Shown: positions 4,473 through 50,807 of the stretch, one piece after another
Layout of the letters: each line of letters starts with the position of its first letter
Numbering within the stretch: the stretch's first letter is position 1
Source: an uncultured delta proteobacterium
Lineage (GTDB): Bacteria; Desulfobacterota; WTBG01; CAIYCZ01; CAIRTM01
NCBI GenBank assembly: GCA_963804955.1
Contig: CAWDSQ010000024.1
Location: 160,001-224,000, forward strand
Direction of reading: 5' to 3'
DNA: 64,000 nucleotides
Made by a program: the position numbers and the translations under genes
The notes under the pieces: generated by a model
What the model saw: only the letters and a program-made list of their open reading frames with translations
Databases searched by the model: none
Told to the model about the DNA's origin: nothing

Positions 4473-4488
4473 AAGGACCTCCTGTCGT

Positions 4489-4739
4489 TTATTTTCCAGT
4501 TCCAAGTTGTTTGGACACGGTTGCTTCGTCATTCATGCCGAACTGCTTTTCAACTCGGCGATATAAGCCGGTTGTTAATGCATTGACTTGATCTGATGTT
4601 CTATGGCCACCCCATACATGCTTAAGATAAAAGACCAGAAATTTCCGGTACAGCTTCATGGGCATGAAACGACGGAGAACGTCACATAGTATAACCTGTT
4701 CAGAACCAGTTGCTTTGAAAAAAAAGCTGGGAAATTCAT
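4489..4739 (-). CDS. Possible small hypothetical protein (~83 aa) upstream of the bchF-like gene; needs one indel in an A8 run
   Basis: Reads MNFPAFFF/KATGSEQVILCDVLRRFMPMKLYRKFLVFYLKHVWGG...LGTGK*; stop abuts the SD of the bchF-like gene. Confidence 0.35.
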
Positions 4740-10565: not shown

Positions 10566-10574
10566 CAATAAAAA

Positions 10575-10690
<116 letters not shown>

Positions 10691-10763
10691 AATAAGTCTT
10701 ACATATGGAAGATATTGAGATTATAAGCAGCGCTGATCGCTGTAATTTAACAAGTAAAGATAA

Positions 10764-13785
<3,022 letters not shown>

Positions 13786-13917
13786 ATGCTTGAGAAATTA
13801 CTTTGATCAACGCTATTATAATCTCAATTTTCCATATGTAATTTTCAAAGAACGGTATTAAAACAGCAAGTGACTGCTTTTTCTAAAAAAGCTTTCGCCT
13901 GCGGCTTTAATGGGGTA

Positions 13918-13990
13918 TGGAGGTAATCGGACTCGAACCGATGGCCCCCTGCGTGCAAAGCAGGTGCTCTCCCAACTGAGCTATACCCCC
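13918..13990 (-). tRNA. tRNA-Ala(TGC), CCA not encoded
   Basis: GGGGGTATAGCTCAGTTGGGAGAGCACCTGCTTTGCACGCAGG...TACCTCCA. Confidence 0.95.
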
Positions 13991-13997
13991 TATTTCA

Positions 13998-14071
13998 TGG
14001 GCCTGGGTAGATTCGAACTACCGACCTCACGCTTATCAGGCGTGCGCTCTTACCAGCTGAGCTACAGGCCC
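13998..14071 (-). tRNA. tRNA-Ile(GAT), CCA not encoded
   Basis: GGGCCTGTAGCTCAGCTGGTAAGAGCGCACGCCTGATAAGCGTG...CAGGCCCA. Confidence 0.95.
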
Positions 14072-14175
14072 ATAATTCAACCTGTACCCGAAGGCTTAAA
14101 AAAAAAGATAAATAGAGAAGGTAACTGCTCGTGAGTTATTTTGCTGCTTGTGTTGCTTATTTGGTTATTACACCA

Positions 14176-15740
<1,565 letters not shown>

Positions 15741-17499: not shown

Positions 17500-19063
17500 T
17501 TACTTTGCATACTCAATTGCGCGGGTCTCACGTATGACGGTGACTTTTATCTGCCCCGGATAGGTAAGGGACTCCTCAATCTTCTTGGCAAGATCCTTTG
17601 AAAGAACCACCGCGCCATCATCGTTTATATCGCCGCTTTCAACCATGACACGTATTTCGCGGCCGGCCTGCACGGCATAGGATTTGCTGACGCCCTTAAA
17701 GGCATTGGCAATATCCTCAAGGTCCCGGAGATGCTTGACATAGGTCATCAGCATTTCGCGCCGGGCCCCCGGCCGCGCTGCGGACAGGGCATCAGCGGCC
17801 TGCACAAGCACCGCAAGCACGGTCTGCGCCTTGACATCATCATGATGGGCAGCTATGGCATGAATGATCTCTTCAGCCTCGCCGTGCTTCTTTGCAAGGT
17901 CGGCGCCGATAAGGGCGTGCGACCCTTCAACTTCATGATCAACGGCTTTGCCGATATCATGCAGCAGCCCCGCACGCTTGGCAGACTTGACATTGATGCC
18001 GAGTTCGGATGCCATCATGCCGCACAGGTAGGAGACCTCCAGAGAGTGCTGGAGCACATTCTGATCATAGCTGGTGCGGAATTTCAATCGTCCCAGCAGG
18101 CGCAGCAGCTCGGGATTTATTTTCTGAATGCCGACATCAAAGGTTACCTGCTCTCCGGCCTCCCGAATGGTGTTGTCCACCTCGCCCCTGACCTTCTCCA
18201 CGATCTCTTCTATCCGCGAGGGGTGAATGCGGCCGTCGGTAATCAGTTTTTCCAGAGCGATGCGCGCAACTTCGCGACGTATAGGATCAAAGGATGATAT
18301 CAGTATTGTTTCAGGCGTATCGTCAATGATCAGATCAACGCCGGTAATCTGCTCAATAGCGCGGATATTGCGGCCTTCGCGGCCGATAATGCGCCCCTTC
18401 ATCTCATCATTGGGAAGGGCCACCACGGATACGGTCTTCTCTGCGACATAATCGGCGCTGTAGCGCTGTATGGCTATGGCAATGATATTGCGGGCAATCT
18501 TATCGGCATTCTCTTTGGTTTCCTCCTCGATCCTGCGTATGGTTCGTGCAGACTCATGCTTGGCCTCATTTTCCAGGTTTTGCATCAGAATCTTTTTCGC
18601 CTCCTCGGAGGTCATGCCCGATATGCGCTCAAGCTTACGCTTCTGCTCTTCAAGAGACTGCGTATACTGGTCCTCCATGTCCTTCACGGCCTTTTCCTGC
18701 GCCGAAAGGGTCTTTTCACGTTTTGCAATGGTGATTTCCTTCTGATCGACCAGTCCGACCTTCTTTTCGAGGTTTTCCTCCCTCTGCGCAAGCCGCTTTT
18801 CCTGCTTTTGCATTTCGAACTTCTTGTTGCGCGACTCCTTTTCAAACTCTGCCTTTGTGCGGTACAGCTCTTCTTTGGCCTGCAGTTTGGCCTCCTTTCA
18901 CAAGCGTGTCTGCTTCCTTTTTTGCTTCATTTATAAGCTTGCCGACCGTCTCTTCAGCAGAAGATATTTTATTTTCTATAATTTTTTTTCTTAGAAAAAA
19001 TCCTACGACGATTCCGGCGACAGCACCGGAGATACCGGCTAGTGCTATGTATATCGGGTCCAA
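17500..19063 (-). CDS. rny: Ribonuclease Y; frameshifted near 18850-18900
   Basis: N-terminal TM segment, KH motif [16 protein letters not shown] motif [28 protein letters not shown]. Confidence 0.95.
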
Positions 19064-21751: not shown

Positions 21752-22488
21752 TGGAAGAAGAAAAACTCCCCCTGACCTCACATCTGGAAGAACTGCGCAA
21801 ACGCCTGGTAATCAGCCTTATCGCTACGGGCATCGGTTTCTGTGCCTGCTACGGATTCTCAGAGCAGATATTTCTACTGTTATCCGCCCCGCTTATTAAA
21901 GCCATGCCCGAAGGCAGCTCGTTCATATTCACCGGCGTTACGGAAGCCTTTTTCACCTACCTGAAGCTTGCTTTCTTTGCAGGGATATTTGTCGCGAGCC
22001 CTGTCATTATTTACCAGATATGGGCCTTCGTCGCCCCCGGTCTGTATGAAAAGGAGCGCAGCAGCATACTGCCGTTTGTCTTTCTGGCTGTTTTCTTCTT
22101 TATCGGCGGAACGGCTTTCGGCTATTTCATCGTCTTTCCCTCGGCCTTCAAGTTTTTCCTCACCTATAATACGCAGTATGTAAAAATCATGCCCTCAATA
22201 GGTGAATACCTTTCTTTCAGCTGCATTTTTCTGCTGGCATTCGGCGTTGTATTTGAAATGCCGGTCTTCATAATCTGTCTGGCCCGTCTCGGGATCATTA
22301 CCCATAATCAACTTCGAAAATACCGCAAAATGGTCATTATAGGTATTTTCATCTCTGCGGCAATACTGACGCCGACGCCGGATGCAGTCAATCAATTGCT
22401 GATGGCCGTGCCAATGCTGGTTTTATACGAGCTGAGTATTATTGCCGTACGGTTTTTTGAAAAAAAAAGGAGAGCTCAAATTGATTAG
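21751..22488 (+). CDS. tatC: Twin-arginine translocase TatC
   Basis: HLEELRKRL, QIWAFVAPGLY, FEMP, LTPTPD, LYE. Confidence 0.96.
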   Translation: MEEEKLPLTSHLEELRKRLVISLIATGIGFCACYGFSEQIFLLLSAPLIKAMPEGSSFIFTGVTEAFFTYLKLAFFAGIFVASPVIIYQIWAFVAPGLYEKERSSILPFVFLAVFFFIGGTAFGYFIVFPSAFKFFLTYNTQYVKIMPSIGEYLSFSCIFLLAFGVVFEMPVFIICLARLGIITHNQLRKYRKMVIIGIFISAAILTPTPDAVNQLLMAVPMLVLYELSIIAVRFFEKKRRAQID

Positions 22489-23593
22489 CTGAGTTTCTGC
22501 AGTTTTTTTCTGAATGCCGCCATAAGCCGATACCCGTCATGAACCGGCTGTTCTGCAAGCTGCTGCAAAATTTTTTTCTCCATGCGCGATATCTTTTTGG
22601 GCATTTCGATATGAAAGCGGTACACCATGTCCCCCTGTTTGCCGCTCTTCTCAGACACAGCCCCCGTGCCTTTAAGCCGAACCTCAGCTCCGCTCTGTAA
22701 GCCTCTTGCAATCTTTATCTTTTTTACACCTTCAAGAGCAGGCACCGTCACATATCCTCCCAGCATGGCCTGATAGAATGGAATTGGAACAGAACAGATA
22801 ATATCAAGGCCGTCGCGCTCAAAAAACGGGTGCTTTTCCACATGCACAACGACCATAAAATCACCCGCTGCGCCACCATCCCGGCCCCGCAGCCCCATAC
22901 CGCGCACCTGGAGCCGTGCTCCGGTTTCTACACCGCCTGGAATTTTTATGTGAACCGGCCGCTCAGACCAGGCAGTGCCTTTTCCTTTGCACCGCGGGCA
23001 CTGCGCAGTGGCTGTTTTCCCCGCTCCCTTACAGGCTGTGCATTGATGCGGCAGGCCGCGCCGGTCGTTGACCTGGCCACTGCCCCGGCATTGCGCACAG
23101 GCAACCAGCTTTGAGCCGGCCCGTATTCCTGTGCCACGGCACTGCGGGCAGGACTCCCAAAAAGGGGATATGAATCTCGGCATCGCATCCGAGGGCGGCA
23201 TCTCTGAAACTCACTTTCAGATTCCGCCGAAGGTCATGCCCCTTTATTGCCTCTATTTTTGGGCCCGTCCTGTCGAAAATAAAACCCCTCATAAAAATCA
23301 CGCAGCATTTCGTCACGGGGCATATAAAAATCGTTGCGCGGCGGGGGCGTGGTTTCGCGGCGTTTAAACTCAGCGGCCTGACGGCGCACAACCATATCAT
23401 ATTCGATGCGTTTCTCAGCATTGCCAATGGTTGCATAGGCCTCATTCACGAGCTTGAATTTCTCTTCGGCAAGTTCATCACCCTGATTTCTGTCAGGGTG
23501 ATAGTTCATCGCAAGGCTTCGGTAGGCTTTCTTTATAGAGGCTGCGCTTGCCGTATGCTCAACACCCAGCACCCTGTAGTAATCAGGCTTCAC
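22485..23593 (-). CDS. DnaJ-family chaperone paralog (J domain, Zn finger, C-terminal domain); frameshifted near 23190-23240
   Basis: DYYRVLGV...YHPDRN; four CxxCxGxG repeats; [16 protein letters not shown] start overlaps the upstream stop. Confidence 0.85.
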
Positions 23594-24598
23594 GCGCCCC
23601 CCTGCTGTGCAGCCATCACTTCGGGGTAATAGCACATCGTGGCTCTGCACGAACGCTTGTAGGTTGCCGTATACAGCATGCGGGCGGCTGTGCGATATGC
23701 CGCCTGCGTTGGGCTTTCATCAAGCATGTCCAGAAGGGTTTTAAGAAACTCCACATCGCGCAGCTTGCGCTCAAGGGGGTTTCCGCGCCCGACGACTTTC
23801 AGGCTTCCGATGCCGAGCTTTTTAAATTCATACAGGGCGCAGGCGCCGCAGGGATGGTCGTCAACATGCACGCGCTCCCATATGCGCTGCCGCTCTATCA
23901 TGCAGGCCTGCCGCATGAACGGCACACTCTGATCGCGGGAAGCTATCTGCACCTCAAAAGGCAGCATGCAGGCATTTTTAAACATGGGGGGCACCTCTTT
24001 GCGCGCCAGCCCGTGCTGAAATGTGCAGAAGCCGTCAATATTTATGCAGCGGGAATTGAGAACAAAAGCCGTTGTTTCCATGGGCGGCATCTGCGCCGTA
24101 ATATCCTCTGATTTCCGCAATCGAGAGATGGCGGGGAAAGGTGATATTGCAGGCGCCCAGCTGTTTAAAAAAAGCTGCGGAGCGCCAGTTAAACACCGTG
24201 CCGCCGGTGCTGATATGTATGGCCGCCGGATAGCTCTGTTCTTTTATAAACTGCAGCAGCCCGAAATCGGTAATGATAAAAGCATCAACCCCTGATGCTG
24301 CCGCCTCGTCAAGATACCACCTGATAAGATCGTATTGCGCCTGCGTATAGTAATGCTCATTGACCGTAAAGTATACAGGAATGCCCAGGCCGTGAGCTCT
24401 GCCGACAGCCTCTTTCAAATCTTCAAAGCGCCGAAAATGCCCTTTGCCGGCAGGCCGCCTGTTTATGGATATAACCGGATATTTCTCATACCAGCTGTCT
24501 TCCAGGACTCCGCAGAAGAATTCACCTGCTCCGGCCTTTGCAAGCCCGTCGACTTCTTCGATGCTGTCAAGCGGCGATAGTATCTTCATTGCTTTCAT
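23590..24598 (-). CDS. U32-family (Fe-S) protein; frameshift near 24110
   Basis: KILSPL...[57 protein letters not shown]. Confidence 0.8.
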
Positions 24599-25492: not shown

Positions 25493-26107
25493 TCAGTCAA
25501 ACGGCGTTTCATTCATCAGGCGCACGACCGGGACGCCGTCAAAAAAATCTATAATATTCAGGCCTCCATACGCCTGATCAATACGGGGTATCATTTTCAA
25601 ATCAAGCCCGAGGGCATGACACAGAATAACACGGTTCACACCGCCATGGGCAACCAGCAGTATATTTTTGCCCTGGTGCTGATCAAGGCAGGCTGTCAGG
25701 CGCGGTATCACACGGTCGCGCATGTCGATAAAACTTTCGCCGCCCTGTATCCTGTAGCCCGCTATATCCGCGGAGCGTTGATCAAACTCCTGAGTAAAAC
25801 GCGCCGTAATCTCTTCGCGGGTCAAGCCCTCCCACTGTCCGAGATGTATCTCCCTGAAAGCAGGCTCCGCTGCCGGCTCAAGACCGATAGCTTTGCCGAT
25901 AATCCAGGCAGACTCTACCGTGCGCATAAGGTCGCTGGACAGCAGCACATCTATTTTTTCCATGCTCAGCCTTCGGGCAAGACGGGATATCTGGGCCCTG
26001 CCTTTATCATTGAGAGCCACATCCATATGCCCCACATACCGCCATTCATGGGAGGTGACGAGCTCGCCATGCCGCGCAAGATAGAGCCGGGTCCGGCCGG
26101 CGCTCAT
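25493..26107 (-). CDS. Histidine phosphatase (CobC/GpmB family)
   Basis: LARHGE, SSDLMRT.ESA, E..LGQWEG, GGES, VAHGGVNR. Confidence 0.88.
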   Translation of the reverse strand: MSAGRTRLYLARHGELVTSHEWRYVGHMDVALNDKGRAQISRLARRLSMEKIDVLLSSDLMRTVESAWIIGKAIGLEPAAEPAFREIHLGQWEGLTREEITARFTQEFDQRSADIAGYRIQGGESFIDMRDRVIPRLTACLDQHQGKNILLVAHGGVNRVILCHALGLDLKMIPRIDQAYGGLNIIDFFDGVPVVRLMNETPFD

Positions 26108-26263
26108 CTGCTCAAGCTCACGGTGTAAGGAAAAACGGAGTCGATGCGTTTTTCTGCTCAATAGTCAGGGAACTGCTCATGGTGTGATCAGTATGAAAAT
26201 AATGGGGTTGTTAACGCATACAAACACAGCGCCGCCCATACCGCGCATCTCTGCAAAGCAGCC

Positions 26264-28427
26264 TCAGAGATGCATCCGGTCACGGATCATACGCACCATT
26301 GTTGTATTTTCGGTATGCCCGGTCATATTTGCAGTAATCCGTGCGCGGATGGGGCGCCCAAGCAGGTAGAAATCTCCTATCATGTCAAGAATCTTATGCC
26401 GCACAAATTCATCGGGAAACCGGAGCTCGGTGTTCACAATCTTCTCATTGTCGATAAGAATAAAGTTATTGAGCTTGCCGCCGCTTGCCAGCCCCCGCTC
26501 TTGAAGGGCCTCAATGTCGCGTAAAAAGCCGAATGTGCGCGCCGGAGCAATCTCCTTCTTGAAGGCTTCCTCGTCGTTCATGATAAAGGTGTATTCCTGC
26601 CGTCCGACCGGCTTTGGATACTGCAGCATATAATGAATTGAAAATCGCTCCGCCGGCTCGACTATCATGTGCTTTTTAGCGCCATCGATTTCACCGACAA
26701 CGAATTTTTCCGTCAGAATGATGTCATCGGCAGGAGCGTCCTGCTCTTCAATGCCCGCATCCTCAATCATCTTGCAGAAATCAACGGCAGAACCGTCCAT
26801 GATGGGCACTTCATTATTGATCTTGATCATGAGATTTGTGATGCGATAGGCATGCAGCGTTGCAAGGCAATGCTCTATCGTTCGTGCTGTTGAGTTGGTA
26901 TTCTGCAGGCATGTTGAATAGTCGGTTGACACAACATAATCGATAGACGCAGGAATAGTATCGTCGCTTGAAATATTGCCGAATACGATGCCGCTGCCGG
27001 GAGGCAGCGGGGTTAAAATAAGGCCTGTTTTGTCTCCGGAATGCAGGCCCTGACCGCTCACGACCATGGCACTCTTAAGCGTTCTCTGAAATCGTTTACC
27101 TGAAGGATTTTCTTTGGCAAAAACAATGCCGTACTCCTTTATTAATTTCTTCAGCTCCTTCTCCCTGATGTGTATTGCGGCAGCCGTTTTCGCTACATTG
27201 CGATCATTTTTGCGCAAATGATGCAGCAGATAATTTTTACGCCAGGCAACTTCAGCCTCTGCCATGCTTGCACATTGCTCATAGGAGCGGGATGAGGCAT
27301 GCTGAGACTCTTCGCGTATGGCCGAGGGCAAATCCTGAGCGGAAATGGTTTTTGTCGGTACCGATACAGCCATTTTTTCAGTGAGATTCTTCAGTTCCTT
27401 AACATTGCCCGGCCAATCATAGTTCACCAGAAGTTCAAGAGACTCGTCATCAAACTGCTTTTCCCTGCAGCTGTATTCCTTGCAGAACTGGCCGAGAAAA
27501 GCGTTGAGCATAACCGGTATATCGCTGCGGCGCTCACGCAGGGGTGGCAGCAGTATCGTGTGCTGAAAACTCTCGGCAAGCGACTTCTTCAAAACTCCGT
27601 CACCCGCTGTTTTGATCGTTGCTCCGACAACCCGCAAACATCCTTCTTCTGTATGCAGCAGCTTGCCCAGCTGATCGGCAAGCCGCTTTTGCATGTCGGG
27701 AGGAACCGCATCAAGCGCCTGCAAAAACAGCACCCCCGTCGCCTCTCCGGTCAGCAGGCCATGCTTGCCGGGCTGGTTGTCGCCGAAAAGTTTTGCCGCA
27801 AGTTCAGCAGGCGTCAAAAAAGCACAATTGATCTTTGTAAAGGTTTTTTTCTTAAATCCGGATCCGCTGTGGATCAACTGCGCCGCATGCTCCTTACCCG
27901 TTCCGATTTCACCCAAAAGCAGAATATGCCCCCTGCCGGATGCAGCGCTTTTGATCTGGTCCATGGCCCTTAAAATTGCATGACTCTCTCCGGACAAAGC
28001 CGGCAGTTCTTCGCGGGCATCTGCGGTTTTCGATCCTGCAGAGCTTTTGCCTGCCGTCTGCTGTTTTTCCTTGATCTTTCTTATGATATCGATAACGGCA
28101 TCAAACGAAAAAGGTTTTTCGAGAAAATCGAAGGCTCCGTGCTTCACTGCCTGAACCGCCGTATTCACCGTGCCGTGACCGGTCATCATAACAATATCAA
28201 TAGCACTGTCAAAGTCCTTAACAGCCTTCAAGGTCTGAATGCCGTCCATCCCGGGAAGCCAGATATCAAGAAAAATAATATCCACAGGATTGAGATTTTA
28301 CGATCTCCAGAGCACGGTTGCCGTCTGAGGCCGTCAGCAGAATATGGCCCTCGTCCTCAAGGCTGCCTCGAAGCGAATTTACAATGGAAGGTTCGTCGTC
28401 AACCAGCAGTATTGCTAAATTTTTCAT
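26264..28427 (-). CDS. lpxC: NtrX-like response regulator (REC, degenerate AAA+, HTH) fused to LpxC (UDP-3-O-acyl-GlcNAc deacetylase); one frameshift near 28290
   Basis: REC: LLVDDE, FLDIWLPGMDG, EKPF. AAA+: GEIGTGKE, WPGNVKEL. LpxC domain 26264-27088: QRTLK, GLHSG, TIEH, EVPIMDGSA, IAPARTFGF, RHKILD, TGH. Confidence 0.85.
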
Positions 28428-30690
28428 TATACGTTTCCCTTCTGAAGCTTATGGTCGGTGATACCGGCAGCTGAATGATGAAACAGGCGCCTCTCGGCTG
28501 ATTGTCGCGCACGCGAATAAATCCATTGTGGTCTGATACAATCGTGTTGACGATAGCCAGCCCCAGACCGGTTCCGGCCTGTTTTGTGGAAAAATAAGGA
28601 TCAAAAATTTTGGTTTTAAGCGCAGGCGGGATGCCGCAGCCGGTGTCCGCAACCTCGATGATTACCACGTCAAGGGCCTGATTGTATGCTGTCTTGACCG
28701 TTACCGTTCCGCCATTTTCCATGGAGTGAACCGCATTGTCAAGCAGATTGATAAGCACGCGTTTTATCTGGTCCCGGTCAAAATTAAACCGGATCGTGTC
28801 CAGCTCACGCACGGCGCTGAAAACAATGGTTTTATGCGCTTCACGGTACAACTTGAGGGTCTCATCAACGACTTCGTTGAGCTCATTGGGCAGGGGATTG
28901 GTTGCCGGCATACGGGCAAAACTCGAAAACTCATTGACCATGGTTTTGAGTTCATCGACCTGATTGATGATAACCGTTGTGCATTCATCAAACACCCCCA
29001 CATCGGATGTGATCTGATGCTGAAACTTCTTCTTCAGCCGTTGAGCTGAAAGCTTGATCGGCGTGAGCGGGTTCTTTACCTCATGGGCTATCCTGCGCGC
29101 AACCTCTTTCCATGCAAATGCCCGCTGCGCCTGCTGCAGCTGGGTGAGGTCTTCGGCAACCAGAACAAGCCCCATGCTTGTGCCCTCGGCGTCAAAAAAC
29201 ATATTGGAGCGCACGTACAAAAACACCATCCTGTCGGCAAGCGACAATGCTATCTGCTGCTCGACGGATCGAAGCCGGCTGACAAGAACCTCGCTGATAA
29301 AATCCTTTAGCGGCGCGAGCTCTTCATGCGCAAACACATCACCGTATGGGCGGTTGACGACCTGCGCAAAGGTGGTATTGAACATGCGTTCCGCTGAATT
29401 ATTGAATGCAGTAATGACACCGTCCTGATCGGTTGAAACAACAACGGAGGCGACATTATCAAGCAAAATCTCCATATACAGCCGCCGGTGCTCAAGCTCC
29501 CGGATGGTTTCCCGCAGGTTGCTGGTCGTTGATTCAACCTGCTGCGTGCTTGCTTTGAGATCATGGGTCATTTTATTGAATGAATGTATCAGGCTGCCGA
29601 TCTCGTCATCGGACGACGGCTCTATCACAACATCCAGATTCCCCTGAGCTATCTGTTCTGTCGCAGTCGCCAGTGAGCTGATGGGTACGGATATCACCTT
29701 TGAAAGGTGAAATCCGAACCACGTTGCAGAAAAAATAATCAGCAGCGTCACGGCAGACAGCAAAATAATATAAATGCCCTTAATGGGGCCCTTGGATATT
29801 TTAAGCTGTTTATATTCCTGATACGCCCGGTTGATCTCGTCCATTTTGATGACAAGACTCTTGGGATTATAAAAATTTACAATCACGGCGCCAACTATCT
29901 CCTGCTTGCCACCCGCAGGCCGCACAGGAACAACGCCGCGAACGATATCTCCGTTGTCGGCAGGCTGAATGCGGGTAACCTCCTTGCCTTCGAGCGCCAG
30001 GCGCACAAGGGCCGCATCTGATCCTATAAAATCCTTCTCGGGCACATCGGCACGGGCAACTTTGACCAGCAGCTCTCCACTGGCTGAAAATATCTCGACC
30101 ACGCCAAGATCGTACTCGGACTGTTTTTCAGCTACCAGCCTCCATAAGGGCTCTGATGCACGATCCCCGAGCATTTTTTTTGCTGCGATACTGCCTGCAA
30201 TCTGGCGGGCGTAGTGGAGCGCTTTTGAGGACGAGTTGCGGTAATAGGCATCAACAACATTGAGTGACTCTTCAAGAGAATTCTCAACTTTAAAGCTGAA
30301 CCAGTTTTCAATCGTATTGGTTATAAAACTGATGGATACCCAGAACAGCAGCATGGTCGGCACCAGGGACAGCCCCACAAAAGCTATGACCAGCTTTGTG
30401 CGCAGCTTCGACCCCAAAATGCCCCTTCTGCGCTCGAAAAAAAGCTTCACAACATTGCGCACAACAAGAAAAAGCAGAAGCAGCAGCAAAATAGCATTCA
30501 GATTGATGAGACTGAAAACAAGAATATTCTGCGGCAGAAGAGCCTCGCCGCTGCGGCCGGTCACATACATCAACAGCGATGTGAGGGCAATGACGACCGG
30601 TATGGCAATAAAAATAATAGTCTGTTCCCGCTTGCGTCGCTTCTGCTCCTCCCGCATCTGACGCTGGAGCCTGTCATTGTCGATGGCCAT
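28399..30690 (-). CDS. ntrY: NtrY-like sensor histidine kinase (TM, HAMP, PAS, HisKA, HATPase)
   Basis: SKLRTKL, WKEVARRIAHEVKNPLTPIKLSAQRL, EFSSFARMP, NLLDNA, DTGCG, GTGLGL. Confidence 0.9.
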   Translation of the reverse strand: MAIDNDRLQRQMREEQKRRKREQTIIFIAIPVVIALTSLLMYVTGRSGEALLPQNILVFSLINLNAILLLLLLFLVVRNVVKLFFERRRGILGSKLRTKLVIAFVGLSLVPTMLLFWVSISFITNTIENWFSFKVENSLEESLNVVDAYYRNSSSKALHYARQIAGSIAAKKMLGDRASEPLWRLVAEKQSEYDLGVVEIFSASGELLVKVARADVPEKDFIGSDAALVRLALEGKEVTRIQPADNGDIVRGVVPVRPAGGKQEIVGAVIVNFYNPKSLVIKMDEINRAYQEYKQLKISKGPIKGIYIILLSAVTLLIIFSATWFGFHLSKVISVPISSLATATEQIAQGNLDVVIEPSSDDEIGSLIHSFNKMTHDLKASTQQVESTTSNLRETIRELEHRRLYMEILLDNVASVVVSTDQDGVITAFNNSAERMFNTTFAQVVNRPYGDVFAHEELAPLKDFISEVLVSRLRSVEQQIALSLADRMVFLYVRSNMFFDAEGTSMGLVLVAEDLTQLQQAQRAFAWKEVARRIAHEVKNPLTPIKLSAQRLKKKFQHQITSDVGVFDECTTVIINQVDELKTMVNEFSSFARMPATNPLPNELNEVVDETLKLYREAHKTIVFSAVRELDTIRFNFDRDQIKRVLINLLDNAVHSMENGGTVTVKTAYNQALDVVIIEVADTGCGIPPALKTKIFDPYFSTKQAGTGLGLAIVNTIVSDHNGFIRVRDNQPRGACFIIQLPVSPTISFRRETYNEKFSNTAG

Positions 30691-31011
30691 GGTAGGTCTA
30701 TCCTTCGAGAGTGCTGAGTTTTTATAACCATAACACATATTCGGGTTGAGTTGCATGTGTTAAAATACTGCATCCCGGGCTGATACAATAAACAACAGCA
30801 GAAGGTAACCGAAGGCAAAAAAACATATTTTTCTATAAGATTTTTTAGCACCTTCTGCAGTATAATGATATGAATAACCTTGACAATGCAGTTGAATTAT
30901 GTTTTTTTATACGTTCGTATTTTGTGGAAGAACATAAAACTCAAATTATTGTAACAGCTTAATAAAACGCACTACATCCAAAGCACTATTTAAGAAAACA
31001 GGGAGACGACC

Positions 31012-34246: not shown

Positions 34247-34532
34247 GCCTGACACAGGCACAGGCGGCAGAAGCCATTCATGGTGCCTGCCGTCTTTGCC
34301 TGGCATGATCGCCGCGCCCTATGACGTCTCTTGCGGACTTTATGAGTGCCGCGTCTTGACCACACCCCGACACATCAGATCCGGAAATTCTGTATCGCAG
34401 CTGTTAGTGTAAGACCCGGCCAGACGATTGATCTGCGCGAATGCTGGAACACTGCAGCGCACCTTGAAAATAATTCATTGTAAATATGGTTTTTTTTTGA
34501 TTAAATAAATAAAAAACAACTTGCATACCATT

Positions 34533-36056
34533 ATGGCACTTGAAGGCAATCTAGAAACTTTTTATCTCTCCAGTCTTTTTCAACTGCTTTCCAATGATAA
34601 AAAGACCGGGAATTTACGCATTACCCATGACGACGATGTGGTTACCGTCCACTTCTGCGAGGGCACGATAGTCTCTGCCACCAGCTCCGACAATGAAAAG
34701 CATCTCGGGTACCTCCTTCGAAGCGAAGGCGTCATCGGCTCCATGGAACTTGAAAAGCATCTGCAGATTGCCAGAAACCGCAAAGAGCGGCTCGGCAAAG
34801 TGCTGGTTGATGAATGCTTCATATCAAAAGAAGAGCTTGATAAATTCGTCCGCATGCAGGTGGAAAATATACTCTTCACCCTTTTTCACTGGATACAGGG
34901 TAAATTCCGGTTTGAAGAATGCGCTGTGTCGGCTGCTGAAGCAACGGACACACAGTTTGAAACCATGGGATTGATACTGGAAGCTTCCCGAAGGGTTGAT
35001 GAGATGTCTGTTCTGGAAAAACAAATACCGGCAAAAGATCAGGTGCTGCGCTATACAGCGGATGCGGCTTCAGCAAACAGGCAAACAACGCTTAACAACC
35101 AGGAAAATGCTGTTCTGCGCCTGGTCAACGGTATGAACACTATAAAGGAAATCATCTACCAGAGCGGTTATGATGAATTTACCGCAGTCAAGGCTCTGTA
35201 TACTCTTTTATCAGCCGGCATAATTGATGTTAAAGAAAAAATAGCACTGTCACTTGAGGCAGATCAGCCACAAACTGTCTCTGCCGAGCCTGCATCCGGC
35301 AAGACGCTGGAAAAAACCTCCCCTGAGGTACCCGGCCAGCAGCAAAAAAAAAGGCCTCCTATCCCTTCAGCTCATGACATTGACCTTGGAGGCGCCCCCC
35401 GGCGAAAAAATCGCTTCTTCAGCATCGCCATTGCCATCATAGTCCTGTTTACCATAGCCGCCGGCGCTGGCGTGCTTTTCAAAATGGGGGTTGTACCTGA
35501 TTTTTTTCGCATAACCGTCAATCCTCCTGACGCCACTCAGCAAACGGCAGTAAAACCGGTGGAGAAAACAGAACAGCCTGAAAAAAACCTGCCTGACGTA
35601 CAGTCCCTGCAGGACAAAAATTCCTTCTTTTTTCTGAACCTGCCTTCTGGATTTGCCTATCAGGATACATCCAGCCCCCGCAAATCAAAAATTACTGCTT
35701 CATACGCAGCAGATATTACCGTCTCAATCGAGGCTCAGCGCTGGCCCGGGCAGTGGAATGCTGAAGATGAGATGTATAAAAAAATTGGCGGATTTCAGGA
35801 TGGGCAATCAGACAGGTCCCGGGCATCAATAGAGTCCCATGGACTCATAAGCATGGGCGGAGGGCAGGGTTTTAAAATAACATCAGCTGAAACGATCAAT
35901 GCCTCCCTGTTCATGACGCATTACTATACCCTTGTCGGGCACCAAAAAATAATTTCAATCCAAATCACCTGCAAAAACTGCAGGCAGGTGGAAACTGGCC
36001 CATTGTTCAACAAAGTTGATGAAGCAATTAAAAAATCTCTACTTATATACCCATAA
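34533..36056 (+). CDS. DUF4388 (PATAN-like) domain protein with TM segment and periplasmic C-terminal domain
   Basis: ALEGNL..F.L..LFQLL...KKTG.L, LFHW..G.F.F, LILEASRRVDE; TM near residues 300-322. Confidence 0.8.
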   Translation: MALEGNLETFYLSSLFQLLSNDKKTGNLRITHDDDVVTVHFCEGTIVSATSSDNEKHLGYLLRSEGVIGSMELEKHLQIARNRKERLGKVLVDECFISKEELDKFVRMQVENILFTLFHWIQGKFRFEECAVSAAEATDTQFETMGLILEASRRVDEMSVLEKQIPAKDQVLRYTADAASANRQTTLNNQENAVLRLVNGMNTIKEIIYQSGYDEFTAVKALYTLLSAGIIDVKEKIALSLEADQPQTVSAEPASGKTLEKTSPEVPGQQQKKRPPIPSAHDIDLGGAPRRKNRFFSIAIAIIVLFTIAAGAGVLFKMGVVPDFFRITVNPPDATQQTAVKPVEKTEQPEKNLPDVQSLQDKNSFFFLNLPSGFAYQDTSSPRKSKITASYAADITVSIEAQRWPGQWNAEDEMYKKIGGFQDGQSDRSRASIESHGLISMGGGQGFKITSAETINASLFMTHYYTLVGHQKIISIQITCKNCRQVETGPLFNKVDEAIKKSLLIYP

Positions 36057-40555: not shown

Positions 40556-42252
40556 ATGAAAGTACAGACAGCAGAAGATTTAGCAAAGGCAAAGGAACAG
40601 GGTAACAAAACGCTCTTCCCCGGCACAGTGCGCATTAATGTCGGCATGTCAACCTGCTGCATTGCAAAAGGCGCCGATGTGGTGCTCAGCGCGCTTGAGT
40701 ACGGATTGAAATCACGGGGCATGAAGGCCGAAGCTAGCAAAAGTAGGCTGCAGCGGCCTGTGCCATATGGAGCCGACCGTTGAAATTCAACAGCCGGGCA
40801 AATCAAAAATCATCTATGGCAATGTTAAAGAACAGGATGTAAACCGGTTGCTTGATGCTGTCGCAGCCGGCAGCGTGGTTGAAGACATGGCTTTTGCCCG
40901 TATCGACAGTGAAGACCATGCGCTGGTGGGTGAAATAAAGTATCAGTACAGCGCTGATGCAGGCTCCTCTGCTTCTGTCAACTCCGTCAATGATATCGAA
41001 TTCCTGAAGGCGCAGCGCAAAGTTATCCTGCGCAATGCCGGCAGCATCAATCCTGAAAACATTTATGAATACATAGCGCGCGATGGCTATGCTGCTCTTG
41101 CCAAGGCTATTGCCATGAAGCCTGAAGCCATCATCAAGGAAATTATTGATGCGGGGCTGCGCGGCCGCGGCGGCGGCGGCTTCCCTGCAGGCCTCAAGTG
41201 GAAAGCCTGCCGCGAGTCCGCAGGTTCGGAAAAATACCTTATTTGCAATGTCAGTGAAGGGGAACCCGGCATCGGCATGCATCGCAGCTTCCTTGAGTCA
41301 GATCCGCACTCGGTACTGGAAGGTCTCATTATCGGCGGATTTGCCATCGGCGCCAGTACCGCCTATGTGTACATCCGCGATAATTACCGCATAGCCCTCA
41401 AGCGGTTCCAGAAGGCCATAGATGATGCCACTGAAATGGGACTTCTCGGCGACAATATTCTCGGATCATCCTTCAGCATGACGGTTAAAGTAAAAGAAGG
41501 CGGTGGACGTTTTGTCTGCGGTGAAGAAACCGCGCTCATCGCCTGCATCGAGGGCCGCATTGGAGAACCCTGCCAGAGACCTCCCTTTCCGGTTGAAAAG
41601 GGCCTTTTCTCCAAGCCAACCTGCATAAACAATGTTGAAACCTGGGCCAATGTTCCGGTCATTATTTCTAAGGGCAGCGCGTGGTACAAAACAATCGGAA
41701 GCGAAACAAGCAAAGGAACCAAAGTACTGTCACTTTCGGGCAATATAGCCCGGGCTGGCATGATTGAAGTGGCTATGGGCACCTCGCTCAAGGATGTTGT
41801 GCACACAATCGGCGGCGGTAGTCCCGGCGGCAAAAAGCTCAAAAGCATTACAAACCGGCGGACCGTCAGGAGGCGTCATTCCCGCAAGCCTTGATACTCT
41901 CACGGTTGACTATGATTCGCTTAAAAGCGCAGGAACGATGCTTGGCTCAGGCGGCATTGTTATTATGGATGAAACAACGGATATGGTTAAAATCGCGCGC
42001 TATTTGACCGACTTTTTCGTACAGGAATCCTGTGGAAAATGCGTGCCCTGCCGGGAAGGGGTATGCAGAATGTGCGCCATGCTCGACGAAATTATCGCAG
42101 GTCGCGGCACGGCACACGACCTGTCCCTGCTGCAGGAAATGTCAGATCCCATAATAAGCGCCTCAGCATGTGCTCTGGGAAAAACAGCGCCCATACCTGT
42201 TCTCTCATCGCTCAAACATTTCCGCGACGACTACACTGCTTATATTAAATAA
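40556..42252 (+). CDS. NuoF/HydB-like FMN and NAD(P)H-binding subunit; frameshifts near 40745 and 41845
   Basis: N-terminal TCCIAKGA thioredoxin-like domain, GLRGRGGGGFP.G.KW, FVCGEETAL, NNVET, GGPSGG, ESCGKCVPCREG, SACALG. Confidence 0.88.
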
Positions 42253-44032: not shown

Positions 44033-45386
44033 CTATGCACGTTCAAGGCCATATTCTTTAATTTTACGCCACAGCGTATTATAGCCGATACTGAGCCTTT
44101 TAGCCGCCTCCCGCTGATTCCAGCCGCAGTGAACAAGCATTTCCTCTATGTGGTGGCGTTCAAGATCACGCAGAGTCATGTGCGAAAAATTATACGACTG
44201 CGCTTTCCTGCCATTATAGTTTTCAAGCAGTATATCATCGGATGTCAGCTCATCAGTCTCCACCAGAATCATGGCCCGCTCAATAGTATTTTCAAGCTCT
44301 CGAACATTGCCTGGCCAGTCGTACAACTCCAGTTTTTGTATCGCGTCTTTGGAAAACCCGATTAATTTCCTGTCTGTACGTTTGCAGTATCGCTCTACAA
44401 AAAAACGGGCAAGCGGCAGGATATCTTCACGACGCTCCGCAATAGGTGGAATATACAGAGGAATCACATTGAGCCTGAAATAAAGATCCTGACGAAAACG
44501 CCCATCCTCAACCAGCTGCTTGATCGGGACATTGCTTGAAGCAAGCACGCGGACGTCGATGACGATATCCTTTGTATCCCCGACGCGCCGTATTTCATTC
44601 TCCTGCAGAACGCGCAGCAGCTTCACCTGAAACGCCGGGCTGGTTTCCCCTATTTCATCAAGAAATATTGTGCCTCCATTTGCCTCTTCGAAAAGTCCTT
44701 TTTTCGTAATATTGGCGCCGGTAAATGCTCCCTTGACATAGCCGAACAGCTCACTTTCAAGCAGTGTTTCAGGAAGAGCCCCGCAATTGATTGCCACAAA
44801 AGGGCCGTCGCTTCGAAGGCTGTAATTGTAGATGGCATGGGCGATAACCTCTTTGCCGGTGCCGCTTTCGCCTTCAATGAGCACCGTTGAGGACGACTTG
44901 GCAACGCGCCTTACCATAGTCAAGAATTTTCTGCATCGCCGGGCTTGTTGCTACAATATTGTCGAATTTGAACAAATCATTAACCTGGCTTCTCAAATTC
45001 TTGACTTCGGCGACAAGGCGCTGCCGTTCAATCGCCTTGTGCACCACAAGATTGAGCTCAGTCAGGTCTATAGGCTTCGTTATATAATCAAAGGCCCCCT
45101 GCTTCATTGCCTGAACAGCAGAGTCCACCGAACTGTTGCCGGTTATTATAATCACCTCGGTGTGCGGAGCAACCTCTTTGACTTTTTTCAGTATATCGAT
45201 ACCGGTAACAGAGTCAAGCATGAGGTCGGTTATAACAACATCGAAGATATCCTCCTGCAGTATCTGCAGAGCGCGCATGCCATCGCTTTCTTCCCGCACA
45301 GAAGCACTCTGCCTGAGAAAAAACTTGGACAGCATGCTGAGCGTTGACTCATCGTCATCAATCAATAAAATATGTTGTTTTTTCAT
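44033..45386 (-). CDS. sigma54-dependent response regulator (NtrC/AtoC/ZraR family); frameshift near 44920
   Basis: REC (LIDDD, TDLML, TKP); [35 protein letters not shown]; Fis-type HTH. Confidence 0.92.
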
Positions 45387-45704
45387 TGTGTTAGGCGAGT
45401 AATAAAAAGTTCCCCTCTGATACCTGCATGGGTTTTCAACATGTGTCAAACATACTACTAGCACAACCGCCGTGCGCCGTGCAAGATTGAATTAAAAAAA
45501 GAAGGGCTTGCAAAGGTTTGAGCTAAAAGCTTAAAATTAATTGCTTGACAAAAAGAAAAAAATGAACTAATTATCACTTCTTTAATTATCATAGATAACA
45601 TCCTCCCCAAAACCTCTACGGCTCGGGGTAGAATTATCAAAGCGACAGTTCCGCTAACAACAGTAACTCAACCGGCTCAACACGTAACCTGCAAGGAGTG
45701 TATT

Positions 45705-46810: not shown

Positions 46811-47254
46811 ATGAAAGTGATTTTGACTGAAGATGTAGCGCATCGCGGTTCCGCAGGCGACATGTTGAAAGTTAAGGACGGCTATGCCCGAAATTTTTTG
46901 ATACCAAACGGCATGGCAATAATAGCAACAACAGAAAATGTCAAGCAGCTTGAGCACCAGAAGCGCCAGGTTCAGGCAAAGCTGAACAAGCTAAAAAAAG
47001 AATCGGAAGGCGTTGCAAAAAAAATAGAAGGCATTTCCTGTACGATAGCGCGGGCTGCCGGCGAAGAGGATAAGCTCTTCGGTTCCGTCACCTCAGCCGA
47101 CATTTACACCAGCCTCAAAAATGAAGGCATTGAAGTAGACAAAAAGAAAATACTGCTCGATGAGCCGATCAAAAACCTGGGCATTTTCACCGTGCCCATT
47201 AAAATACATGCTGAAGTAACCGCCAATCTGAAAGTATGGGTTGTCAAAGAATAA
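46811..47254 (+). CDS. rplI: 50S ribosomal protein L9
   Basis: MKVIL.EDV, VKDGYARNFLIP, KLFGSVT. Confidence 0.97.
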   Translation: MKVILTEDVAHRGSAGDMLKVKDGYARNFLIPNGMAIIATTENVKQLEHQKRQVQAKLNKLKKESEGVAKKIEGISCTIARAAGEEDKLFGSVTSADIYTSLKNEGIEVDKKKILLDEPIKNLGIFTVPIKIHAEVTANLKVWVVKE

Positions 47255-47273
47255 GGAGCCTCGGGGCAACTTC

Positions 47274-48627
47274 ATGGGCAGCAACGCTCTCCAGAACGTA
47301 CCCCCACAGAATCTAGAAGCGGAGCAATCGCTTCTAGGCTCAGTGCTGCTGGAAAATGAAGCCCTTTTCAAGGCACTGGAAATCATAAAAACAGATGATT
47401 TCTACCGCGAGTCGCATCGCCAGATTTATCAGGCGATGCTGGATCTGTACGAAAAAAACGAACCTGCCGATCTTATCACCGTCACCGAAGTCCTGAAAAG
47501 AAAAAACAAGCTCGATGAAGTCGGGGGAGCTTCCTATCTCGCCGACCTGCTTGAAAAAATACCCACCGCCGCCAATATCGAGTACTACGCAAAGATTATC
47601 CGGCAGAAGTCAATACTGCGCAATCTTATCTACTCCGCTACCGAAATCGTCTCAAAGGCAACGACGGCTGAAGAAAATGTCGAGGATATTCTCGATTTTT
47701 CAGAAAAAACAATCTTCCAAATTTCAGAATACCAGATAAAACCTTCATTTTACCCGCTGAAAACGATACTCAAGTCGACGTTCAAAGATATTGAGCGGCT
47801 GTATGAAAAAAAACAGACTATCACCGGCGTGCCATCGGGGTTTGCCGATCTCGATGTCGAAGACATCAGGATTTCAGCCCTCCGATCTCATTATCATTGC
47901 CGGGCGTCCCAGTATGGGCAAAACCGCCTTCTGCCTCAATGTCGCTCAATATGCATCGCAGGAATCCCATATCCCCATAGCAATCTTCTCTCTTGAAATG
48001 TCAAAAGAACAGCTGGCGCTGCGCCTGCTGTGCAGTGAAGCGCGCGTCGACAACCATAAGCTGCGCACGGGCAACATTGCAGAAACAGACTGGGGCAAAC
48101 TGTCCATGGCAGCGGGCAAACTTGCCGATTCAAAGATGTTTATCGATGACACACCCGGCATAACAGTCTTTGAAATGCGAACCAAAGCCCGGAGGCTCAA
48201 GGCCGAACAGGGCCTGGGCATGGTCATCGTAGACTATCTGCAGCTCATGGCCGGCTCAAAAAACCGCTCAGACAGCCGCGAGCAGGAAATATCAGAAATC
48301 TCACGGTCCCTCAAGGGGCTTGCCAAGGAACTCCATGTGCCGGTTATCGCACTTTCTCAGCTCAATCGCAAAGTGGAAGACCGCGTCGATAAACGCCCAC
48401 ATATGGCTGATTTGCGTGAATCCGGTGCCATTGAACAGGATGCTGACGTTATCCTGTTCATTTACCGGGATGAAGTCTACCATCCCGATTCTGAAGAATC
48501 AAAGGGCAAAGCCGAGGTGATAATCGGCAAACAGCGCAATGGGCCAACCGGCGAAGTACAGCTTACTTTCATCAATGAATATACCCGGTTTGAGAATTAT
48601 TCCTACAGAGACATAATGCCGATTTAG
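47274..48627 (+). CDS. dnaB: Replicative DNA helicase; frameshift near 47855
   Basis: [56 protein letters not shown]. Confidence 0.96.
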
Positions 48628-48898: not shown

Positions 48899-50807
48899 AT
48901 GGCAAAAGCAATCGGCATAGATTTAGGAACAACCAACTCTGTTGTTGCAGTCATGGAGGGTGGTGAACCGACGGTTATCATCAATGAGGAGGGCAGCAGA
49001 ATCACCCCTTCTGTTGTTGCATTTACCAAAGAAGGAGAAATTCTGGTTGGTCAGGTTGCAAAGCGGCAGGCGATCACCAATCCTGAAAACACAATTTATT
49101 CAATCAAGCGCTTCATGGGACGCAAGTACAGTGAAGTAAGTGAAGAAATGAAAATGGTTCCCTACAAAGTACTGGAGGGAGCCAATGGTGATGTTCGGAT
49201 CGAAGTACGCGGCAAACAATATTCACCGCAGGAAATTTCAGCCAAAACCCTGCAGAAACTCAAAAAATCAGCTGAAGCATATCTCGGCACCGAAATAAAA
49301 GATGCGGTGATCACGGTACCCGCCTACTTTAATGACAGCCAGCGTCAGGCAACCAAAGACGCCGGCACGATCGCCGGCCTGAATGTACTGCGCATAATCA
49401 ACGAACCGACAGCATCTGCCCTTGCCTATGGTCTGGACAAGCAAAAGGAAGAAACAGTTGCAGTCTATGACTTCGGCGGCGGAACCTTTGATATCTCCAT
49501 ACTTGAAGTCGGCGACAATGTCATCGAGGTCAAATCAACAAACGGCGACACGCATCTTGGCGGCGACAATCTGGATCAGCGTATTATCGACTGGCTTGTG
49601 GCAGAATTCAGAAAAGACCAGGGCATAGACCTCAGCCAGGACAAAATGGCGCTGCAGCGCCTCAAAGAGGCTGCGGAAAAGGCAAAAATAGAGCTTTCAT
49701 CAACGGTTGAAACAGAAATAAACCTGCCGTTTGTTACGGCTGACGCCTCAGGGCCAAAGCATCTTAACTGCCGCTTGAGCAGGGCGAAATTCGAGCAGAT
49801 GATTGACGATCTCATCGAGCGCTCGCATATACCATGCGAAAAGGCTCTTCAGGATGCCGGACTGCAGCCCAGCCAGATAAACGAGGCTATTCTTGTCGGC
49901 GGCTCGACACGCATACCCAAGGTGCAGGAAATGGTGCGCAAAATTTTTGGCAAAGAGCCGCATAAAGGCGTTAATCCGGATGAAGTTGTCGCGCTGGGAG
50001 CTTCCGTGCAGGCGGGTGTTCTGTGCAGGAGAGGTTAAAGATGTGCTTCTTCTTGACGTTACCCCCTTGTCCCTCGGCATAGAAACCCTGGGCGGCGTCA
50101 CGACCAAGCTCATCGAACGCAACACGACAATACCGACAAGGAAAAGTGAAATATTCACAACGGCTGCCGACAACCAGACAAGCGTTGAAATCCATGTGCT
50201 GCAGGGTGAGCGCGATATGGCACGCGATAACCGTACGCTTGGCCGGTTTCAGCTTGTGGGCCTTCCGCCGGCGCCTCGCGGCGTGCCCCAGGTTGAGGTA
50301 ACCTTCGACATTGATGCCAACGGTATCGTGAACGTATCGGCAAAAGATCTCGGAACCGGGAAGGAACAGAAAATAACCATAACGGCATCAAGCGGGCTGA
50401 ACAAAGACGACATTGATAAAATGGTCAAGGATGCCCAGTCGCATGCAGACGAGGACAAAAAGCGTCGCGAGGAAATTGAAGTGCGCAATCAGGCAGACAG
50501 CCTTGTGTACGCAACCGAAAAAGTACTGAAGGAAAACCGCGATAAGGTGTCAGAGGCAGATGCTACAGCAGTTGAAGATGCGCTAAAGGCTACACGTGAT
50601 GCCATAGAAAAGGGGAATACGCGACGAAATCAAGGCTCGCATGGAAGCTCTGAACACTGCCTCTCACCGGCTGGCTGAAGCCATGTACAAGAAGGCATCA
50701 GCTGGCTGATGCGCAGCCTGGCGCAGGCAGCACAGGCCCCCAGAGCACCGGCGCCGACAGGACAAAACGATGTCGTTGATGCGGAATTTGAAGAAACCGA
50801 TAAATAA
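48899..50807 (+). CDS. dnaK: Chaperone DnaK; several frameshifts (~50025, ~50620-50760)
   Basis: [53 protein letters not shown]. Confidence 0.97.

Follow-up and report, generated by a model that had tools for sequence, protein, structure and literature searches.

In the 64,000-nucleotide stretch of an uncultured delta proteobacterium analysed here (contig CAWDSQ010000024.1, positions 160,001 to 224,000; hereafter the window), the enzyme LpxC is encoded as the C-terminal domain of a response regulator. The locus is a two-gene two-component operon, in which the gene of an NtrY-like membrane kinase is followed by that of a hybrid regulator carrying the sole LpxC of the genome as its output. The fusion is genuine and conserved and is no artefact of the assembly. 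Judging from the conserved residues and the gene order, it is reasonably likely that LpxC is under direct phospho-control by the NtrY-like kinase, and that this arrangement goes back to the fusion of an activator to its own target. Phosphotransfer to the receiver, any effect of it on LpxC and gating at the level of the protein are what we infer. The gene had been pointed out in an earlier note made from the sequence of the window alone. Its parts and the kinase are listed below; positions refer to the window.

28399..30756 (-): NtrY-like sensor histidine kinase, 785 aa (Pfam NtrY_N, HAMP, PAS, HisKA, HATPase_c)
26264..28285 (-): main open reading frame (ORF), 673 aa plus stop, with the C-terminal part of the receiver (REC), a degenerate AAA+ module, a helix-turn-helix (HTH)-like region and LpxC
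28082..28285 (-): C-terminal part of REC, with the phospho-acceptor Asp in FLDIWLPGMDG and the conserved Thr and Lys (Pfam, aa 1-68)
27290..27994 (-): AAA+ module, consisting of a Sigma54_activat fragment and AAA_lid_14 (Pfam, aa 98-332)
27122..27253 (-): three-helix HTH-like region of eroded Fis type (alignment with the NtrX HTH; helix prediction)
27089..27121 (-): short basic linker VFAKENPSGKR between the HTH-like region and LpxC; this is the questioned junction, with no in-frame stop
26285..27088 (-): LpxC domain, UDP-3-O-acyl-GlcNAc deacetylase (Pfam, 3.7e-84)

In the 673-aa ORF Pfam finds Response_reg at aa 1-68 (profile 43-110), Sigma54_activat at 98-206 (profile 2-117 of 168), AAA_lid_14 at 250-332 and LpxC at 400-667 (3.7e-84). 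The motifs quoted in the earlier note (FLDIWL, LFGDNQPGKHG, LFLQA, TIEH, RHKILD and TGH) are all in its translation. The stop of the kinase ORF overlaps the ATG of the regulator at 28427 by 29 nucleotides (nt).

The 673-aa ORF was used as the query against 40 related genomes. Twenty-four have a single frame of 726-783 aa, free of stops, that matches the query from residue 1 or 2 to at least residue 669. A further six matches extend across the junction; four of these are cut by a contig end or start late (G003, G012, G036 and G024), and the other two contain one stop each somewhere in the match (G010 and G040). The other 10 of the 40 gave no fused match. The frames of the relatives read through from ...KEYGI over about 12 residues to QRTLK.... 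In a large protein collection the best 120 clusters all carry LpxC, and 106 of the 120 are at least 700 aa long.

The earlier note had cautioned that one base might be missing between the HTH and QRTLK, in which case ntrX and lpxC would really be two overlapping genes. An AAGGAG (27139-27134), an out-of-frame TTG (27126) and an out-of-frame TAA (27098-27096) are indeed all present at this place, in an assembly rich in frameshifts. The caution is contradicted by the independent genomes, mostly many-contig assemblies, by the continuous frame in more than 100 database clusters and in other phyla, and by an independent short-read contig of one relative (run X1, record 2), which spans 27051-27302 with 13 substitutions and 0 gaps. 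No in-frame stop separates the HTH from QRTLK. The AAGGAG can be explained otherwise, since it holds the codons for K-E in KEYGI, the conserved end of the HTH. Moreover, the 11 codons of the linker have a ratio of nonsynonymous to synonymous substitution rates (dN/dS) of 0-0.16. For the family the two-gene explanation is already refuted, and we leave it next to no chance. For the linker, the AlphaFold2 model gives a low predicted local distance difference test score (pLDDT) at residues 439-442. Release of a free LpxC from an internal start was considered and rejected: there is no in-frame ATG, GTG or TTG between AAGGAG and QRTLK, and the next Met comes only after the invariant Q447 and T449.

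The damage in the window lies in the receiver, not at the junction, and is probably a sequencing error. Two further features describe it.

28292..28427 (-): N-terminal 45-47 residues of REC, in another frame than the rest of the gene (three-frame translation; Response_reg profile 1-45)
28289..28291 (-): one-base insertion splitting REC, CAAT instead of CAT (DNA alignment with congeners)

The first 47 REC residues (MKNLAILLVDDEP...IVKSQ, from ATG 28427) sit in this other frame, which the earlier note had overlooked. The 673-aa ORF is otherwise as that note describes it. In the DNA alignment there is one extra A at about 28290-28291 relative to all three congeners, and two short contigs of close relatives (runs X1 and X4, one each) omit one base at 28289/28290. 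The description of the assembly as indel-rich holds, with six genes of the window each split into adjacent or overlapping frames: dnaJ (22485-23650, in three pieces), a U32 peptidase gene (23590-24598), a NuoF-like gene (40767-42252), the gene of a sigma-54 response regulator (44033-45464), dnaB (47241-48627) and dnaK (48899-50678). RNase Y (17500-18813) and Pth (54922-55311) begin inside their Pfam profiles. Therefore, any argument from a single frame in the source genome needs its relatives. Since essential genes of the window (dnaB, dnaK and dnaJ) show the same type of break, we read the REC frameshift as an assembly error, and the extra A near 28290 is most likely an error of sequencing or assembly.

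It is very unlikely that the source copy is truly damaged, that is, that the extra A is real and that the gene either yields a receiver-truncated protein from an internal GTG at 28285 or is decaying. The frameshift is there in the assembly, and the best of the public sequencing runs contains a share of 0.10 of the sampled words of the source strain; no RNA run was listed. The coverage came from short contigs of relatives; it is partial, and uncovered parts of the stretch carry no meaning. On the other side, the genome has lpxA, lpxB and kdtA and no lpxC but this one, the remaining ORF is intact and under purifying selection, and the essential genes dnaB, dnaK and dnaJ are broken in the same way. 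In addition, a complete ribosomal RNA operon (5S, 23S, two tRNAs, 16S; 10574-15740, reverse strand) lies inside the long contig, which fits a long-read assembly.

The LpxC part appears to be an intact enzyme. It scores 282.8 bits against a cut-off of 27 and covers positions 1-266 of the 268 of Pfam PF03331. It is about 40% identical to Pseudomonas aeruginosa LpxC (1.7e-51), and the catalytic and zinc residues align one to one. The zinc ligands we take to be the His of TIEH and the His and Asp of HKxxD, with Glu, Thr, Lys, Asp and His as the catalytic residues. E518, H519, T631, H677, K678, D681, D685 and H704 are found in every one of 51 long forms of the fused protein, and the catalytic and zinc residues recur in all of 91 LpxC domains, fused and stand-alone. 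The AlphaFold2 model matches solved LpxC structures in Foldseek with target-normalised TM-scores (TMt) of 0.80-0.91 and a root-mean-square deviation of 2.2-3.0 A. Within the genus, the scope of the dN/dS values for the domains given here and below, dN/dS of the LpxC part is 0.05. The earlier note's description of a complete LpxC that keeps its catalytic and zinc residues is thereby borne out. The fused protein stops right after the last LpxC helix, without a C-terminal tail.

The source genome (4.26 Mb, 36 contigs, 87% complete) gave a single LpxC match, so that no stand-alone lpxC was found elsewhere in it; lpxA, lpxB and kdtA are also present. In the class to which the window belongs, 33 of the 34 genomes of at least 80% completeness have LpxC. 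Twenty-five of them have the fused form and no second copy, and eight have a stand-alone lpxC with an open frame of 291-336 aa. One genome (G012) gave a second LpxC match, which is the remaining end of its fused gene, located on a different contig. The carriers from other lineages (Syntrophobacteraceae, Binatia, Thermoanaerobaculia, Nitrospinaceae and Desulfomonile) likewise have the fused copy only, in five of five cases. With the fused gene as the only LpxC in all 30 carrier genomes examined, gene content indicates that it is the housekeeping LpxC.

The fused LpxC domains have features of their own. The Pfam LpxC score is about 285 bits in the fused clade versus about 360 for stand-alone relatives. 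KTG after GLHSG is among the clade's own conserved residues. T25, G26, H83, K93, C109, Y161, G166 and L215 (domain numbering) each occur in 90% or more of 28 non-redundant fused LpxC domains but in no more than 15% of 57 stand-alone ones. These eight residues may mark a surface that faces the receiver or a shifted acyl-chain preference.

In the regulator module the phospho-site is kept and the activator motifs are gone. All of 51 long forms share D10, D11, D54, T82 and K104 of REC. Among 40 short forms, D10, S81 and K103 never vary, and D9 and D53 are present in at least 90%. The REC domain of the window has all the pocket residues, its acidic pair lying within the frameshifted N-terminal piece. 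The AAA+ motifs were counted in 106 full-length members. Walker A, GxxGxGK (G172, G175, G177, K178), and the arginine finger R299 are both present in 106 of 106. No member has GAF[TS]GA and none has the DE of Walker B: its first position is D in 42 of the 106, and its second is S in 66, A in 36, G in 3 and F in 1, never E. At the sensor-II position 105 of 106 have Lys, where canonical activators have Arg. The absence of GAFTGA and the dead Walker B, which the earlier note had read from the single sequence, are therefore properties of the whole family. From these motifs the sigma-54 activation function is judged to be lost. dN/dS is 0.05-0.12 for the receiver, 0.16-0.20 for AAA+ and 0.05-0.08 for the HTH-like region, values by which the ATPase-dead AAA+ module is relaxed rather than decaying. 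To call this module a scaffold, as had been done, may undersell it, because the residues of its nucleotide pocket never vary and purifying selection acts on it (dN/dS 0.16-0.20).

Among solved structures, the N-terminal 395 aa are best matched by Brucella abortus NtrX (5m7n), over its whole length (2e-43; Foldseek 1.5e-31). The HTH-like region aligns with the HTH of 5m7n and three helices are predicted in it. Pfam HTH_8 (PF02954) matches only 3 of 51 members at E <= 0.05, and in the alignment the HTH is missing from the Desulfomonile form.

A scan with one genome per species found the fusion in metagenome-assembled genomes (MAGs) of Thermodesulfobacteriota, Nitrospinota, Acidobacteriota and Binatota. 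Two forms occur. Type A is REC-AAA+-(HTH)-LpxC, of about 700-745 aa. Type B is REC-linker-LpxC, of about 420-460 aa, without AAA+ and HTH; 12 of 14 candidate loci show it as ORFs, and reframing reveals it in the remaining two. The phylum was sampled evenly with 401 genomes, each at least 85% complete, and 104 of these carry an LpxC of the fused clade. Sixty of the 104 match the REC-LpxC query end to end, and 14 more read directly as REC-long linker-LpxC, which brings type B to 74 of 401. Another 29 have long frames, of which 13 were seen as type A among the related genomes and 16, outside the class, are assigned to type A by an open-frame length of at least 690 aa alone. The last one lies at a contig end. 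Among the best 150 Pfam LpxC matches listed for the phylum, all are stand-alone. At 50% identity the family makes up dozens of clusters among the best 150 representatives. Databases name the fused proteins automatically as LpxC or NtrX.

In a maximum-likelihood tree of 91 LpxC domains, all 34 fused ones fall in one clade (Shimodaira-Hasegawa-like approximate likelihood ratio test, SH-aLRT, 100) with a stem of 0.73, apart from the 57 stand-alone LpxC. The fusion thus has a single origin. The 20 type A and 14 type B domains are interleaved within the clade, so that 4-5 architecture changes are needed. Even between distant type A proteins the AAA+-HTH parts are homologous, with their losses in common. 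Because of this interleaving and these common losses, the simplest history would be a single fusion event, after which the AAA+-HTH part was deleted repeatedly. Across both forms, it is the receiver that always accompanies LpxC.

These data bear on the alternative that the regulator is still mainly a DNA-binding transcription factor independent of sigma-54, with LpxC as a passenger or as a metabolite-sensing 'trigger enzyme' domain. Phosphorylation would then control the expression of genes and not the enzyme, which for the long form would be compatible with direct phospho-control. The full-length match to Brucella NtrX, HTH included, fits this alternative, as NtrX lacks GAFTGA too; so do the three predicted helices and the strong purifying selection on the HTH-like region. 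However, HTH_8 is recognised in just those 3 of 51 members, the Desulfomonile form has no HTH, and the REC-LpxC form of the same clade lacks the whole AAA+-HTH part, with 4-5 changes of architecture. Furthermore, Brucella NtrX keeps its Walker B (LYLDEV), whereas DE is found in 0 of 106 members here. We therefore consider a transcription factor unlikely.

The kinase is the second component of the proposed system. As the earlier note had stated, an NtrY-type kinase lies directly upstream: the ORF at 28399..30756 has the layout NtrY_N-HAMP-PAS-HisKA-HATPase_c, its NtrY_N match being 26 bits against a Pfam cut-off of 23.2. Of 34 fused loci, 19 have an NtrY-like kinase gene immediately upstream, among them all 11 from the class of the window. 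In the source genome there is no second NtrY-type kinase and no other kinase with the same sensor region.

Unfused genomes of the same class show the ancestral gene cluster. Four of four have a cluster lpxC-DUF4390-ntrY-response regulator, with a kinase 47-54% identical to that of the window. Their regulator has LFLDEIGD, and GAFTGA by pattern in 3 of 4. Similar clusters occur elsewhere, in an Acidobacteria MAG (L068) and, without DUF4390, in a Deltaproteobacteria MAG (L075); the regulators of these two have Sigma54_activat matches of 246-249 bits and match HTH_8. Two more loci (L071 and L089) have a similar cluster with kdtA in the place of the regulator. Taken together, in these eight unfused loci (L109-L112, L068, L071, L075, L089) a GAFTGA-type regulator follows in six and kdtA in two. 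Three of the eight have a sigma-54-like -24/-12 box (TGGCA-N6-TTGC), placed 45-64 nt upstream of lpxC; by our own estimate the chance expectation for a stricter box pattern is about 0.01. In the source genome DUF4390 gave no match by model or by tblastn, where the model also missed controls and the genome is 87% complete. There are related data from other bacteria. In Desulfovibrio vulgaris, lpxC is given as the single target of the sigma-54 regulator DVU2934, and in Syntrophobacter fumaroxidans lpxC is described as adjoining the orthologous regulator operon (PMC3333781). In Rhodobacter sphaeroides, loss of NtrYX is reported to raise lpxC mRNA 8.8-fold and to raise lipopolysaccharide (LPS), without an NtrX site at lpxC (PMC7240162). 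The activator of the unfused clusters probably drives lpxC transcription. The regulator part of the fused protein is a descendant of a sigma-54-dependent activator of the NtrC/NtrX type.

Direct phospho-control could work as follows. The NtrY-like kinase would sense an envelope or redox cue and phosphorylate the receiver Asp (D54). Phosphorylation would alter the packing of the receiver or the oligomeric state of the ATP-binding, hydrolysis-dead AAA+ module, and this altered state would change the activity or the availability of LpxC at the protein level. In type A the signal might pass through the non-hydrolysing, ATP-binding AAA+ module, and in type B through the receiver alone. Once fused, the activator shed the loop that contacts sigma-54 and the catalytic residues of Walker B, and kept the phospho-site, the ATP pocket and the arginine finger. 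The short REC-LpxC form, having neither AAA+ nor HTH, strengthens the case for post-translational gating. AlphaFold2 gave the type B protein (40-sequence alignment) a pLDDT of 89.1 and a predicted template modelling score (pTM) of 0.85 overall, versus a pTM of 0.45 for type A; the type B model hints at a fixed packing of REC on LpxC. A predicted complex of the long-form receiver (1-125) with the LpxC domain (441-720) scored 0.00, which is no evidence either way.

Several points weigh against direct phospho-control. First, the pairing does not hold everywhere, as the kinase query found no adjacent kinase at 15 of the 34 fused loci; these 15 include Nitrospinota and all the Acidobacteriota loci, as well as L018, where the upstream flank is only 341 nt, and L024, where there is a weak match. 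Second, within the genus the HTH-like region is as constrained as LpxC (dN/dS 0.05-0.08), and thus a DNA-binding role may persist in the long form. Third, the receiver is frameshifted in the source assembly, and if this were real the copy would lack the first 47 residues, acidic pair included. Fourth, the 16 type A assignments outside the class depend on frame length.

A more specific version of the mechanism, suggested by analogy, is that the AAA+ module is a phosphorylation-gated assembly switch, in which an ATP-stabilised ring or higher oligomer gates the tethered LpxC domains together. The unphosphorylated receiver would hold dimers apart, as in NtrC1-type activators, and phosphorylation by NtrY would permit an oligomer that turns several LpxC on or off jointly. 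What would be left of the switch in the short REC-LpxC lineages is docking of the receiver on the enzyme. We offer this version tentatively, as a possibility with the odds against it.

Alternatively, the receiver, with the AAA+ module, could control the amount of LpxC rather than its catalysis, acting as a degron or adaptor that depends on phosphorylation, hands the fused enzyme to FtsH, Lon or Clp and replaces the LapB/FtsH route of enterobacteria. In Escherichia coli LpxC is controlled by proteolysis (PMC3333781; PMC6339880), the fused protein has no C-terminal tail, and no LapB equivalog scores above the cut-off in the source genome (best 39 bits versus 363; NCBIfam). However, a LapB-type zinc ribbon is found at C20:249534-249617 of the source genome, and the short form, with its high pTM, is more suggestive of two domains packed into one enzyme than of a free degron. 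The zinc-ribbon match lies in a 93-aa open frame (C20:249507-249617), which may be the end of an indel-broken LapB-like gene; the Pfam model of this ribbon also matches Gram-positive controls, and the NCBIfam equivalog gave weak TPR matches. LapB cannot be called absent, because the genome is indel-rich and 87% complete. On balance, control through degradation seems improbable to us, and we prefer direct phospho-control.

Comparison with known systems shows both parallels and differences. NtrY/NtrX is the closest one. Brucella abortus NtrX (5m7n/5m7o/5m7p) has the same REC-AAA+-HTH layout and is the best solved match by sequence and by fold, both NtrX and the fused regulator lack GAFTGA in the 5m7n alignment, and the window kinase has the NtrY layout NtrY_N-HAMP-PAS-HisKA-HATPase. 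In R. sphaeroides NtrYX has been tied to the envelope, to lpxC mRNA and to LPS levels (PMC7240162). The fused regulator differs from NtrX by a whole LpxC at its C-terminus, by the loss of Walker B, kept in NtrX as LYLDEV, and by an eroded HTH. Since the nearest unfused relatives have GAFTGA, the likeness to NtrX may be convergent and the loss of GAFTGA independent. DVU2931/DVU2934 of Desulfovibrio vulgaris is described as a dedicated two-component pair, with an NtrC-family regulator linked to lpxC, in the same broad lineage (PMC3333781). DVU2934 acts on transcription as a separate protein, whereas here regulator and enzyme are one polypeptide and the sigma-54 motifs are gone. The likeness consists in the linkage to lpxC and does not imply orthology to the regulators here.

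As an enzyme, the fused LpxC resembles the stand-alone LpxC of E. coli, P. aeruginosa and Aquifex aeolicus, with the same fold, about 35-40% identity and the same catalytic and zinc residues; it differs in its long stem (0.73), lower Pfam score, own conserved residues and missing C-terminal tail. In enterobacteria stand-alone LpxC is controlled by FtsH/LapB proteolysis. To our knowledge, control of LpxC by an attached receiver has not been described before. The logic of a receiver placed on an enzyme is the same as in the CheB methylesterase, the PleD and WspR diguanylate cyclases and the HD-GYP protein RpfG. In such response regulators with enzymatic output, phosphorylation acts on catalysis without transcription. 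Here the output is a core biosynthetic enzyme of an essential pathway, and the long form adds a vestigial AAA+-HTH part. REC-HD-GYP proteins are mentioned in 10.1101/2021.11.05.467447. The LpxC-FabZ/FabA fusions of the FCB/PVC groups are given as a known LpxC fusion in 10.1101/2025.10.16.682753; there the partner is a C-terminal metabolic enzyme, whereas here it is an N-terminal signalling module. Our full-text literature searches found no paper on a receiver-LpxC or NtrX-LpxC fusion. A 2025 review on lipid A regulation (PMC12444477) contains neither 'fused' nor 'fusion', and NtrX occurs there in the reference list only.

In a quarter of the sampled genomes of the phylum (104 of 401) and in at least three other phyla, LpxC is present only as the output domain of a response regulator. 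The flux into lipid A is set by LpxC, which is also among the major targets of antibiotics. As far as we know, its control is well understood only in enterobacteria, where it involves FtsH/LapB proteolysis. If phosphorylation acts on the enzyme, the fusion would connect a membrane sensor directly with the committed step in making the outer membrane, and a core biosynthetic enzyme would join the outputs of response regulators. The family also records a clear evolutionary path, leading from a sigma-54 activator of lpxC, through fusion with its target and decay of its motifs, to the loss of AAA+-HTH.

A further gene follows the operon on the same strand.

25493..26161 (-): histidine phosphatase superfamily gene (His_Phos_1; Pfam 4.8e-57), 102 nt downstream of the fused gene

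All 11 loci from the class of the window have a His_Phos_1 gene downstream of the fused gene. Elsewhere in the window, an ORF at 4029-4532 (reverse strand) matches BCHF, 2-vinyl bacteriochlorophyllide hydratase (8.6e-26), which is unexpected in a relative of sulfate reducers; it adjoins an IS110-family transposase (2746-3888). Finally, an N-terminal DUF4388 is present in two proteins, at 34521-36056 (forward strand) and 62058-63128 (reverse strand), the first of which sits between the rnpA-yidD-yidC-jag group and mnmE.

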